Assembly (NCBI RefSeq): GCF_058153355.1
Contig: NZ_CM177019.1
Length of the DNA stretch: 64,000 nt
Direction: 5' to 3' (one strand)
Part shown: positions 56,399-61,789 of the stretch, piece after piece
How the letters are laid out: each line of letters begins with the position of its first letter
Position numbering within the stretch: position 1 is the stretch's first letter
Program-made: the position numbers and the translations under genes
Notes under the pieces: model-generated
The model's database searches: none
The model's input: only the letters and a program-made list of their open reading frames with translations
Told to the model about the DNA's origin: nothing

Positions 56399-57613
56399 AT
56401 GAAATTTGAACGCCATCATGAAATATTGAAACGACTCAGTAAATTCGGTTCTGTAAAAGTATCCGATCTGTCCAATAGCCTCAATGTAACGAAAGAAACT
56501 ATTCGTTCAGATCTTAATGAACTTGCCAGGCTTGGCTATCTGACTCGATGTCATGGCGGTGCTTTTATCGTCCTAGACTCGCTTGATACTATTGCGAAAA
56601 ATGAAATCGCTTATGCGCTTGAAAATTATGATACAGCCCAGGGAATAAAAAAAGGCCACTCAACTATGAAAAGTCAAGTATGCGTTATTGGTTCGTTTAA
56701 TGTTGATATCATCAGTTATTTGCCGAGGCTTCCCACTATCGGAGAATCGCTTCTGGCAAGTAATTTTATATTTTCACCGGGGGGAAAAGGCTGTAACCAG
56801 GCGCTGGCAGCAAGCTTTGCCGATACTGATGTTTATTTCATAACAAAAGTAGGTACAGATCACTTTAGTGATTATGCGATCAACTTTATGAATTCGTCTA
56901 AGATTTATAAAAGTATAATTTATCAAACGAAAGAAACGCAAACCGGAACTGCCACGATCCTTGTTAATGAAGGTACTGGCGATAATGTTATTGCGATCTA
57001 TCCCGGTGCCAACATGACAATGTCGTCCGATGAAATAACTATTCAGAAAGAAGCGATTATTAATTCTGATGTCATACTTCTGCAGCTCGAAACAAATTAT
57101 ACCGCTCTGCAACAAGCGATCACATTGGCGCAAAAAAACAGTATCCCGGTCACTATTAACCCGGCACCCTATAATGATATCGTCAACGAACTTATTCAGG
57201 ATGTTGATTATATCACCCCCAATGAAACAGAAGCTGGTTTACTGTCCGGCATAGACGTACACGATCTTGAATCAGCTAAACGAGCTGCAGAAGCTATCCA
57301 CAATAAAGGGGTAAAAAACACGGTTATCACGCTCGGTAGCAAGGGCTCGCTCGCATTTGATGGCAAAAAATTCATTCATTCGCCAGCGTTTCCAGCGGTC
57401 GTTAAAAATACGGCAGGAGCCGGGGATGCGTTTAACGGCTCTCTGGCATCAGGACTTGCGAAAGGAAAATCACTGGAATCAGCACTGTGTTATGCCAGCG
57501 CCTTTGCATCCCTAGCGGTGGAGACAAGCAATGCTTCCGACATGCCTGAACATGAATCTGTGATACATCGAATTCAGAGTATACATTATCAGCAAACTAT
57601 TTTTACGCATTAA
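56399..57613 (+). CDS. fusion protein: DeoR-type HTH domain plus PfkB/ribokinase-family carbohydrate kinase
   Basis: 404-aa ORF; residues 1-60 DeoR HTH (SVKVSDLSNSLNVTKETIRSDLNELARLGYL); remainder PfkB kinase with both signatures (GGKGCNQALAA; GAGDAFNGSLASGL); AT-rich. Confidence 0.7.
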   Translation: MKFERHHEILKRLSKFGSVKVSDLSNSLNVTKETIRSDLNELARLGYLTRCHGGAFIVLDSLDTIAKNEIAYALENYDTAQGIKKGHSTMKSQVCVIGSFNVDIISYLPRLPTIGESLLASNFIFSPGGKGCNQALAASFADTDVYFITKVGTDHFSDYAINFMNSSKIYKSIIYQTKETQTGTATILVNEGTGDNVIAIYPGANMTMSSDEITIQKEAIINSDVILLQLETNYTALQQAITLAQKNSIPVTINPAPYNDIVNELIQDVDYITPNETEAGLLSGIDVHDLESAKRAAEAIHNKGVKNTVITLGSKGSLAFDGKKFIHSPAFPAVVKNTAGAGDAFNGSLASGLAKGKSLESALCYASAFASLAVETSNASDMPEHESVIHRIQSIHYQQTIFTH

Positions 57614-57626
57614 GAAGGGACAGAGA

Positions 57627-58385
57627 ATGAATAACACCAAAAAATCACTAAAAGTGCTCTTTATTGGGGAATCCTGGCATATTCATATGATTCATTCAAA
57701 AGGATATGACAGTTTTACCTCAAGTAAATATGAAGAAGGTGCGACCTGGTTACTCCAGTGTCTGAAAAATAGTCAGGTAGATGTCACCTATATGCCAGCA
57801 CATACGGTACAAATTGCCTTCCCTGAAGATGTGGCACAGTTAGAACAATATGATGCCATCGTTATTAGTGATATTGGTAGTAATACTTTCCTGCTACAAA
57901 ATGATACTTTTTATCAGCTTCGCATAAAACCAAACGCTCTCGAACTGATTAAAGAATATGTGAATAACGGTGGTGGGTTATTGATGATTGGCGGCTATCT
58001 CTCATTCATGGGAATTGAAGCAAAAGCCAATTATAAAAATACAGTTCTGGCTGATGTGCTCCCGGTTACGATGTTAGATGGTGACGATCGTGTCGAAAAA
58101 CCAGAGGGTGTTATTGCACAGCCATCACAACCTGAACATCCAGTTATTAAAGGGTTCTCTGAATATCCTTTTTTCCTAGGTTATAACCGGGCGATCGCTA
58201 AAGAAAATGCTGAGGTGGTATTAACAATAAACAACGCTCCATTACTGGTCTTTGGTAACTATCACAACGGGAAAATAGCCTGCTTTATGAGTGACTGTTC
58301 ACCGCACTGGGGTACACAGCAGTTTATGTCCTGGCCGTTCTATACCGCGTTGTGGGTAAATATACTGACTCATATTGCAAGATAA
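57627..58385 (+). CDS. class I glutamine amidotransferase-like (ThuA/DJ-1-like fold) protein, function unknown
   Basis: 252-aa ORF; KVLFIGESW ... YDAIVISD ... NGGGLLMIGGYLSF pattern typical of the fold; no clear catalytic Cys assignment. Confidence 0.4.
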   Translation: MNNTKKSLKVLFIGESWHIHMIHSKGYDSFTSSKYEEGATWLLQCLKNSQVDVTYMPAHTVQIAFPEDVAQLEQYDAIVISDIGSNTFLLQNDTFYQLRIKPNALELIKEYVNNGGGLLMIGGYLSFMGIEAKANYKNTVLADVLPVTMLDGDDRVEKPEGVIAQPSQPEHPVIKGFSEYPFFLGYNRAIAKENAEVVLTINNAPLLVFGNYHNGKIACFMSDCSPHWGTQQFMSWPFYTALWVNILTHIAR

Positions 58386-58441
58386 TAATAATAATGGGGT
58401 AACTCCAGTTACTCCATTTACTATAATAGAAGGATTGATGT

Positions 58442-59407: not shown

Positions 59408-59483
59408 TCATGAAAGATTATCTACAAACTGTGACGGGCCCCGTCGCCCGTGAAGATATGGGGCTAACACTTTGGATTTGCCC

Positions 59484-60389
59484 CTATATTTCCAGACACC
59501 TGTTATCACTTAACCCATTACTGGCCTGCTGCCGCAGATATTCCCGTGGCGAGCGATAACCCAGTGCACTATGCGGATGCCATTCGTTATAATGCTCGAA
59601 CGCCTCTGCAAGGTTCTTTGCTGCCGTTAACCCGTCTGGTTTAGGCATGATACTGATGTAGTCACGCTTTATCGTTTTCACGAAGCTCTCTGCTATGCCG
59701 TTACTCTCCGGACTCCGCACCGCCGTGTTCTTCGGTTCAAGCCCCAACATCCGGGCAAACTGCCGTGTTTCATTAGCCCGGTAGCATGAACCATTATCCG
59801 TCAGCCACTCTACTGGAGACGCCGGAAGCTCGTTGCCGAAGCGGCGTTCCACCGCTCCCAGCATTACGTCCTGTACTGTTTCACTGTCGAAGCCGCCCGT
59901 AGTGACTGCCCAGTGCAGTGCCTCACGGTCACAGCAGTCCAGCGCGAACGTGACTCGCAGTTTTTCTCCGTTATCACAGCGGAACTCGAACCCGTCAGAG
60001 CACCATCGTTGATTGCTTTCTTTCACGGCCACTTTGCCAGTATGTGCCCGTTTCGATGGCGGTACAGCGGTTTTTCGCTCAAGCAACAGCGCATTCTGGC
60101 GCATGATCCGGTAAACACGTTTGGCATTGATCGCAGGCATACCATCAAGTTCGGCCTGTCTGCGAAGCAGCGCCCATACCCGACGATAACCATACGTGGG
60201 CAGCTCTCCGATAACATGGTGTATACGGAGAAGCACATCCGTATCATCTGAGTGACGGCTGCGGCGACCATCTTTCCAGTCATCGGTTCGTCTGAGAATT
60301 ACGTGCAACTGCGCACGCGACACCCGGAGACAACGGCTGACTAAGCTTACTCCCCATCCCCGGGCAATAAGGGCGCGTGCGCTATCCAC
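59484..60389 (-). CDS. insD: IS2 transposase OrfB (DDE integrase domain)
   Basis: 301-aa ORF matching IS2 InsD; overlaps insC in the -1 frame as expected for programmed frameshifting. Confidence 0.9.
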
Positions 60390-60712
60390 TTTTTTGCATG
60401 CCCGTATTCAACGGCTTCTTTAAGGAGTTCATTTTCCATCGTTTTTTTGCCGAGCAGGCGCTGGAGTTCTTTAATCTGCTTCATGGCAGCAGCAAGTTCA
60501 GAGGCAGGAACGACCTGCTCTCCTGCGGCCACAGCAGTAAGACTTCCCTCCTGGTATTGCTTGCGCCAGAGAAATAACTGGCTGGCTGCCACACCGTGTT
60601 GCCGGGCAACAAGGGAGACCGTCATTCCCGGTTCAAAACTCTGCTGAACAATAGCGATCTTTTCCTGTGTAGTACGCCGTCTGCGTTTCTCCGGTCCTAA
60701 GACATCAATCAT
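60347..60712 (-). CDS. insC: IS2 OrfA (HTH DNA-binding protein)
   Basis: 121-aa from [26 protein letters not shown]... Confidence 0.9.
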
Positions 60713-61789
60713 CTGCTCTCCAATGACTAGTCTAAAAACTAGTATTAAGACTATCACTTATTTAAGTGATATTGGTTGTCTGGAGATTCAGGGGGCCAGT
60801 CTACACTTCCTCATGAACATCTGTTCAACGATCTTTCCTCTGTTGTGGATGCTCCTTGCTATCCTTTTTCACAACGGCTTGTTGATAAAAAAGTCACGGC
60901 AGAAATCCAGTGGGCATTAAAACACGATCCTTATTGCTGCGCTGATAATATGGACCGCAAACCTATTGAAGATGTGATCTTCGAAATTAATAACTTTATC
61001 TCGCTCGGTGGTCGCACCATTATTGATGCCACAGGGTCTGAGTCTATCGGACGAGATGCGCAGGCATTACGAGAAGTCGCATTAAAAACAGGTCTGAATA
61101 TTGTTGCTTCCTCCGGTCCCTACCTGGAAAAATTTGAAAACCAGAGAATTCATAAAACGGTTGATGAACTGGCGACAACGATCGATAAAGAATTGAATCA
61201 AGGGATTGGCGATACGGATATTCGTGCCGGAATGATCGGTGAAATAGGTGTTTCACCGACATTTACCGAAGCCGAGCATAACAGCTTGCGGGCTGCCTCG
61301 CTGGCACAGATTAACAATCCTCATGTGGCGATGAATATTCACATGCCGGGCTGGCTTCGTCGCGGTGATGAAGTACTCGACATTGTGTTAGGTGAAATGG
61401 GCGTCTCGCCAAATAAAGTCTCTCTCGCACACTCGGATCCGTCAGGAAAAGACGTGGCGTATCAGCGGAAAATGCTTGATAAAGGTGTCTGGCTGGAATT
61501 CGACATGATTGGCCTAGACATTACCTTCCCGAAAGAGGGAATAGCGCCAGGGGTGCAGGAGACTGCCGATGCCGTCGCTCATCTCATTGAGTTGGGATAC
61601 GCCGATCAGCTTGTTCTCAGCCACGATGTCTTCCTTAAACAAATGTGGGCTAAAAATGGCGGTAATGGCTGGGGATTTGTTCCAGATGTTTTTCTGGCCT
61701 ATCTGGCGGAGCGCGGCGTCGATAAAACGATCCTCAAAAAACTCTGTATCGATAATCCCGGACGATTATTGACCGCATAAAACCATTAT

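Follow-up and report, generated by a model that had tools for sequence, protein, structure and literature searches.

Within a 64,000-nt window, by which we mean the whole stretch of DNA that was analyzed (contig NZ_CM177019.1 of NCBI RefSeq assembly GCF_058153355.1), four same-strand (+) genes form a cassette spanning positions 56399–61780. In order, they encode RikA, a fusion of a DeoR-type helix-turn-helix (HTH) domain with a PfkB-family ribokinase; a ThuA-like protein of family PF07090; a transporter of the DMT_YdcZ family; and a metal hydrolase of the phosphotriesterase (PTE) family. The open reading frames (ORFs) and the intergenic gaps of 13, 56 and 2 nt given in a preliminary description of this DNA were reproduced by our ORF map of the window, and its domain calls (DeoR-HTH plus PfkB, amidotransferase-like/ThuA-like, DMT and PTE) held in profile and structure searches. 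The interval is not a run of four contiguous genes, as it also contains a 1331-bp copy of the insertion sequence (IS) IS2. Only rikA and the PF07090 gene are intact in the window; the other two were rightly described as inactivated, the DMT gene by a nonsense codon (W203*) and the PTE gene by IS2. With both the transporter and the hydrolase dead, the whole pathway cannot run in this window.

We consider it likely that this segment is the E. coli/Shigella-lineage copy of the Salmonella rikA-STM3548-STM3549-STM3550 operon, acquired horizontally on an island remnant and decaying here. The encoded proteins are 74–95% identical to those of the Salmonella cluster and follow the same order, and in one E. 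coli genome the NCBI Prokaryotic Genome Annotation Pipeline (PGAP) labels the first gene “ribokinase RikA.” The cluster of Salmonella Typhimurium, rikA (STM3547) to STM3550, shares with ours the gene families and their order, a 404-aa RikA with M90 and D343, and the motifs upstream of rikA. It differs in being chromosomal and located between a yhhY-like acetyltransferase gene and ggt, whereas the copy in the window lies on an island remnant near yeeX, has only a fragment of ggt, carries two dead genes, has an ISSso6 element upstream and belongs to an inverted block. Conservation of the rikA-STM3548-STM3549-STM3550 set in Citrobacter, Escherichia, Budvicia and Proteus has been reported (PMC13432705). 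The four-gene cluster is hence already known and partly characterized, and the present copy is a pseudogenized remnant of it; the preliminary description had missed both that the cluster is named and that W203* is no local event. Its proposal that the four genes form one operon agrees with our finding of the same genes, intact and in the same order, in E. coli Nissle, Klebsiella, Orbus, Citrobacter, Budvicia, Providencia and Proteus, so that intact co-located sets do occur in several genera. Chance juxtaposition of the four genes was rejected on the ground that their order is kept across approximately eight genera.

The AT-richness remarked on earlier was borne out by base composition and codon usage, and the cassette was clearly distinct from the core genes. 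Without IS2, its GC content is 43.6% (40–47% per gene, with 36–45% at third codon positions, GC3), compared with a mean of 52.1% (sd 3.4; GC3 57%) for 18 flanking core genes, and the cassette lies at a codon-usage distance of 0.050 from the core, farther than any of 200 equal-sized subsets of core genes (at most 0.034). The cassette is therefore compositionally foreign relative to the core genes. Its GC content is also below that of the flanks in Salmonella and Klebsiella, while in Orbus cassette and flanks are both at 37%, and this pattern suggests a donor lineage of low GC content. We found the cassette in 2179 of 5426 complete E. coli genomes (~40%), usually in an island remnant in the interval cobU-yoeF/tmaR(yeeX), where it is bounded by an IS66 fragment on one side and by a partial ggt and a broken ISL3 element on the other. 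As the preliminary description had stated, K-12 has a prophage remnant in this position, namely the cryptic prophage CP4-44.

A trace of the earlier surroundings is present in the window. A 310-bp remnant of the 3′ end of ggt (gamma-glutamyltransferase; 61804–62113, − strand), annotated as partial ggt in E. coli, is 81.7% identical at the nucleotide level to the 3′ end of Salmonella ggt, and in Salmonella the full-length ggt lies directly downstream of the cassette. The E. coli/Shigella copy would thus have arrived with a piece of its old neighbor, and the hitch-hiking fragment, judged from this match, indicates import from a ggt-adjacent locus like that of Salmonella.

The transporter gene (58442–59407, + strand) is a pseudogene of the DMT family that comprises two DMT_YdcZ halves (two PF04657 domains); NCBIfam assigned no family to its fragments. 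Its reading frame is broken by a single in-frame TAG at 59048–59050 (W203*), and a frameshift was rejected, as this nonsense codon is the only disruption. E. coli Nissle has TGG at this codon, several other E. coli genomes have TAG, and a 65-bp probe around the codon was identical to the window in 599 of 2037 E. coli genomes that carry the cassette, which makes the nonsense allele old and widespread, at about 30% of carriers. Between E. coli and Salmonella the DMT protein shows 94.7% identity, whereas the other three proteins of the operon reach only 74–85%; the segment could be mosaic or recombined, or the protein could be under unusually strong constraint.

In the PTE-family gene, IS2 (59473–60803, − strand) separates a 5′ fragment holding codons 1–21 (59410–59472, + strand) from a 3′ fragment holding codons 22–344 (60809–61780, + strand). 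The ends of the element and its 5-bp target-site duplication, CACTT (59468–59472 and 60804–60808), were read from the sequence, and its TnpA and TnpB score above their NCBIfam cut-offs (NF006918, 706 bits; NF006928, 273 bits). Excision of IS2 together with one copy of the duplication yields a PTE gene of 1035 nt and 344 codons, whose product aligns end to end (residues 1–344) with Pmi1525 of Proteus mirabilis (PDB 3RHG/4QSF) at 581.8 bits, and the metal-ligand motifs H23-x-H25, E166, H199, H229 and D294 are all kept in the 3′ fragment. The HxH, Glu, His, His and Asp motifs are the binuclear-metal ligands typical of the amidohydrolase superfamily, to whose cog1735 esterases Pmi1525 and Rsp3690 (PDB 3K2G) belong, and the Proteus gene sits in the same four-gene cassette; the gene in the window differs from it in being split after codon 21. 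Judged by alignment and motifs, the predicted protein is an ortholog of the Pmi1525-type cog1735 esterase.

A probe spanning the exact IS2/PTE junction had no contiguous match in complete E. coli genomes among the matches listed. It gave 19 full-coverage matches, of which the 8 listed are all two-piece, and these look like IS2 located elsewhere in the PTE gene. A TTG-start ORF (60776–61780) runs from the end of IS2 in frame into the 3′ fragment with all catalytic motifs kept; we set aside the idea of a functional hybrid, as the first 21 residues are lost, and regard it as a pseudogene fragment. The terminator scan found a GC-rich, terminator-like hairpin with a 12-bp stem (61788–61814) where the PTE gene and the ggt fragment converge; it has no T-tail on the + strand.

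These results bear on the reading put forward in the preliminary description, a module acting on a phosphorylated sugar or a lactone, with a lactonase-like hydrolase; in such a module the kinase would phosphorylate a sugar or lactone and the PTE protein would act as a lactonase or phospholactonase. The PTE family does include phospho-furanose lactonases, and kinase and PTE protein are adjacent here and co-occur in Firmicutes operons as well. The match to the phospho-furanose lactonase model, however, is weak and lies far below the curated cut-off (NF045706, 36.2 vs 630 bits), as do those to Php (NF007373, 106.7 vs 486 bits) and OPH (NF041153, 69.4 vs 500 bits). Moreover, a published account describes the close ortholog Pmi1525 as a nonspecific carboxylate esterase, both its residues and the assay of its Salmonella ortholog make the kinase a ribokinase, and in many related operons the PTE protein is replaced by amidases (M20, cytidine deaminase or iminopeptidase-type), which fit lactone chemistry poorly. 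We therefore regard a phospho-sugar or lactone module as improbable.

Decay of the cassette is not peculiar to the window. In E. coli TUM1223, IS2 lies between rikA and the PF07090 gene, and rikA is frameshifted; in B379, IS2 occupies a second site, within the PTE gene, and 19 genomes appear to have a third; in FDAARGOS_943, IS1A has removed the PF07090 gene; and in CFSAN004176 rikA is frameshifted. Because IS2 is found at at least three sites and is joined by an IS1 deletion, frameshifts and a nonsense allele in ~30% of carriers, this repeated independent inactivation suggests that many host-adapted E. coli/Shigella lineages can do without the cassette.

The first gene, rikA (56399–57613, + strand), is intact and encodes 404 aa, with HTH_DeoR at residues 5–56 and PfkB at residues 92–382 (Pfam). 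Identity to pieces of Salmonella RikA is 74–86%, the internal start M90 is present, and the catalytic Asp is D343, aligned with D255 of RbsK. The top PDB matches of the product are all ribokinases, and its kinase domain is 37.7% identical to E. coli RbsK; its scores fall short of the ribokinase equivalog cut-offs in NCBIfam (TIGR02152, 281.1 vs 299.65 bits; NF008353, 251 vs 341 bits). For the ribose-contacting residues of RbsK we used those reportedly seen in the structures of Sigrell et al. The RikA residues N101, D103, G128, G129, K130, N133, E231 and D343 correspond to N14, D16, G41, G42, K43, N46, E143 and D255 of RbsK, and four of the five hydrophobic pocket residues checked are kept from RbsK (A98, I100, I110 and I112), the fifth, I251, being Ala in RikA. 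Because the polar ribose contacts, most of the pocket residues and the catalytic Asp are retained, RikA looks like a genuine ribose binder, and from these conserved residues we infer ribose kinase activity for the protein encoded in the window.

RikA has features that set it apart from RbsK and the rbsDACBKR system. It carries an N-terminal DeoR HTH, the catalytic efficiency of the Salmonella enzyme with ribose is ~50-fold lower than that of RbsK (PMC13432705), and its partners are a PF07090 protein, a DMT transporter and a PTE hydrolase rather than RbsD and RbsACB. Because purifying selection on the HTH codons (pN/pS, the ratio of nonsynonymous to synonymous polymorphism, of ~0.16–0.3) is comparable to that on the kinase domain, and because a 404–406-aa HTH-kinase fusion ORF is retained in all genera examined, the HTH is best regarded as a genuine coding region. 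The Salmonella enzyme, STM3547 (RikA), is a ribose kinase in assays, and its Km for ribose, 2.0 mM, equals that of RbsK; a chromosomal rikA alone is enough for growth on ribose, and Asp343 is essential (McCormick, Jabbar and Escalante-Semerena, Mol Microbiol 2026; PMC13432705). In the literature on STM3547–3550, PMI1522–1525, STM1381/1382 and the Pfam names, we found no physiological function beyond this RikA paper.

Following a gap of 13 nt, the second gene (57627–58385, + strand) is likewise intact and encodes a 252-aa protein of ThuA-like fold, the ortholog of STM3548. It matches PF07090 (GATase1_like) with E = 1e-111 (Pfam) and the structural-genomics entry for Salmonella STM3548 (PDB 2GK3) at 484 bits; NCBIfam assigned no family to it. 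Homologs are 58–83% identical across phyla, with approximately 75 near-invariant residues; in 2GK3 an invariant cluster comprises E15, S16, W17, H20, H23, D82, N86, Y124, E131, D223, C224 and H227. A canonical class I glutamine amidotransferase role was rejected, as the protein has no Cys at the nucleophile elbow. ThuA-like proteins (PF06283, e.g., PDB 1T0B) are only 14–20% identical to the PF07090 protein and belong to a different Pfam family, and since ThuA-like chemistry is itself unclear, the resemblance gives no mechanism for the PF07090 protein.

Between ISSso6 and the rikA start codon, 113 bp of upstream region are retained (56286–56398, + strand), and two motifs survive there, downstream of the element. 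One is a T-rich direct repeat, TTTTGCTTTTTTTTGCTTTT (56306–56325), which contains TTTTGC repeats and has a single occurrence in the window, where chance predicts 0.01; the other is TATGG-N6-TCACA (56337–56352), with the consensus TATGR-N6-TCACA across genera. Both are conserved before rikA in 12 sequences from eight genera, from E. coli to Proteus, with a variant form in Orbus. We infer from this conservation that the T-rich repeat is a candidate DeoR-type operator and TATGG-N6-TCACA a candidate CRP-like site. We found no mention of these motifs in the RikA paper (PMC13432705).

The surroundings are, as previously described, ridden with insertion sequences, which include ISSso6, IS2 and a broken ISL3-family element (62192–63811). 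ISSso6, of the IS110 family, occupies approximately 54768–56285 on the − strand, with boundaries known to ~2 bp, and its transposase ORF (55033–56208) matches NF033542 at 273.7 bits. Similarity to the E. coli reference sequences is interrupted at 54767/54768 and 56285/56286; the name was taken from the annotation of E. coli records, and FDAARGOS_943 has the same insertion site upstream of rikA, there in the native cobU-side context. In this part of the window (54612–56285), ISSso6 sits at the end of an IS66-type fragment, and the sequence to its left is a yoeF-side paralog, 88% identical, of the IS66 fragment that comes before rikA in E. coli. Relative to yeeX, the block made up of the cassette, the ggt remnant and the ISL3 element runs in the opposite direction from that in E. 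coli references such as CFSAN004176. This suggests that IS elements mediated an inversion, with its other breakpoint outside the window. As in K-12, yeeX is separated from the IS elements by a yoeF-type remnant (54358–54714), of which just the C-terminal part is left (EutP/PduV family). Farther away, a very AT-rich stretch (20604–31940, 32% GC) lies between colanic-acid-like genes and gnd, the position expected of an O-antigen cluster.

Gene neighborhoods of PF07090 proteins offer a view of what an intact operon may do. Our census took the best 80 of 320 PF07090 loci, and its counts refer to 74 species-level loci and to same-strand runs. A PfkB kinase accompanied the PF07090 gene at 51 of the 74 loci, a transporter at 61 and a hydrolase at 69; all three were present at 49, and the exact four-gene set of the cassette at 20. 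In the variant operons, the transporter was an Rbs-like binding-protein ABC system, a NupC nucleoside transporter, an APC permease or a DMT protein, and in most of them it was an Rbs-like sugar ABC transporter rather than a nucleoside transporter. The hydrolases were comparably diverse: PTE proteins, ArgE/DapE-type M20 deacylases, carbamoylase/allantoate-amidohydrolase-type M20 proteins next to an AllA-like protein, proline-iminopeptidase-family proteins, a choloylglycine-hydrolase-type amidase and cytidine deaminase.

Salmonella itself holds such variants. The cluster STM1382 (orf408)-STM1381-STM1380-STM1379, adjacent to Salmonella pathogenicity island 2, resembles the cassette in having a DeoR-HTH/PfkB fusion followed by a PF07090 gene, together with one hydrolase and one transporter, and STM1381 (PDB 3SOZ) matches the PF07090 protein of the window at 369 bits. 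This cluster and the NupC variant differ from the cassette in that the hydrolase is an alpha/beta hydrolase of the proline-iminopeptidase family or a cytidine deaminase, not a PTE protein, and the transporter an APC permease or NupC, not a DMT protein. The NupC variant, seen in one Salmonella genome, consists of DeoR-PfkB, NupC, PF07090 and cytidine deaminase genes; it adjoins a Tn3-family transposase, a resolvase and an integrase, and is plasmid-borne, with an IncFII repA ~6 kb downstream. In Serratia proteamaculans there is a run of NupC, PF07090 and cytidine deaminase genes, in which a PfkB kinase was not detected. In Paenibacillus, the PF07090 gene is preceded by genes for an AllA-like protein (ureidoglycolate-lyase family, weak match) and a carbamoylase/allantoate-amidohydrolase-type M20 protein, within an operon of a ribokinase and an Rbs-like ABC transporter, and this arrangement hints at ureido- or carbamoyl-ribosyl substrates.

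Since the ribokinase-like kinase and PF07090 are fixed, uptake is of the ribose or nucleoside type, and the C–N or ester hydrolase is swappable, we tentatively propose, as one possible function and the one we favor, that the intact operon salvages ribose from a ribosyl conjugate. The DMT protein would import a ribose-containing conjugate (a riboside, or a ribosyl ester or amide), the PTE esterase and the PF07090 protein would strip off the non-sugar part, and RikA would phosphorylate the freed ribose to ribose-5-phosphate. Full-length HTH-RikA might repress the operon at the conserved TTTTGC direct repeats, with the CRP-like site adding catabolite control.

The direction of transport enters here, as Pfam describes DMT_YdcZ as a putative exporter. 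On a detoxification reading, the transporter would export a toxic ester or phosphonate that is hydrolyzed by the PTE esterase, with the kinase-regulator serving only as the sensor of a sugar signal; according to the title of a paper on it, Pmi1525 is promiscuous in hydrolyzing methylphosphonate esters. We find this highly improbable: related operons replace the DMT protein with uptake systems (binding-protein ABC, NupC or APC permease), the operon has a catabolic-type kinase and the candidate CRP-like site, and no export substrate is known.

The order of the enzymatic steps is the more serious point of competition with ribosyl-conjugate salvage. In a kinase-first route, following the logic of psuK/psuG in pseudouridine breakdown, RikA would phosphorylate the 5′-OH of the riboside, PF07090 would then cleave the product to ribose-5-phosphate and an aglycone, and the use of free ribose would be a side activity. 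The pairing of kinase and PF07090 with a NupC-type transporter and cytidine deaminase in variant operons is in keeping with this route, as are the low, DeoK-like kcat/Km of RikA for ribose and the moonlighting suggested in the RikA paper (PMC13432705); PfkB pseudouridine and nucleoside kinase models also match RikA, although weakly. The residues of the RbsK pocket enclose the sugar and would leave little room for an aglycone, so that the retention in RikA of all the polar ribose contacts and of four of five hydrophobic residues speaks against a riboside as substrate. So do the ribose Km, equal to that of RbsK, and the predominance of Rbs-like sugar ABC transporters over nucleoside transporters in the variants. 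On balance we think the kinase-first route unlikely, and it is our main alternative to the salvage of ribose freed beforehand.

Several points weigh against ribosyl-conjugate salvage in the form proposed. The low catalytic efficiency of RikA with ribose is similar to that of DeoK, whose use of ribose is a side activity, and the authors of the RikA study raise the possibility that phosphorylating ribose is a side activity or moonlighting function and leave the physiological substrate open (PMC13432705). The Salmonella RikA made in the laboratory started at Met90 and thus was without the HTH (PMC13432705). PF07090 is a family without assigned chemistry, its nearest structural relatives being uncharacterized ThuA-like proteins and non-catalytic glycosidase domains. 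As for regulation, the operator and CRP assignments derive from sequence conservation alone, and a scan for the sigma-70 consensus gave no promoter upstream of rikA, the number of sites being no higher than in shuffled sequences. The census, finally, covers the above subset of PF07090 loci, with neighbors labeled by BLAST against a small hand-made library.

The copy in the window is itself of little significance, being a pseudogenized version of an accessory operon that PGAP annotates in ~2,000 complete E. coli genomes. The wider value lies in the natural substrate of the rikA cluster, for which the comparative data narrow the search. They point to ribose conjugates through the fixed core of kinase and PF07090, the swappable transporters, the swappable amidases and esterases (including carbamoylase-type M20 and AllA-like proteins), and the T-rich repeat as an operator candidate. 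A bolder and rather doubtful extension is that PF07090 and a ribokinase-type PfkB form the fixed core of a widespread modular pathway, found in Enterobacterales, Succinivibrionaceae, Bacillaceae and Paenibacillaceae, that salvages ribose from conjugates of the N-ribosyl, ureido or acyl kind, for example ribosylureas and nucleosides that are damaged or modified. PF07090 would then be a new ribosyl-cleaving enzyme, with the variable amidase or esterase and the transporter setting specificity. If this were true, the ribokinase activity of RikA would be its physiological role and not a case of moonlighting.

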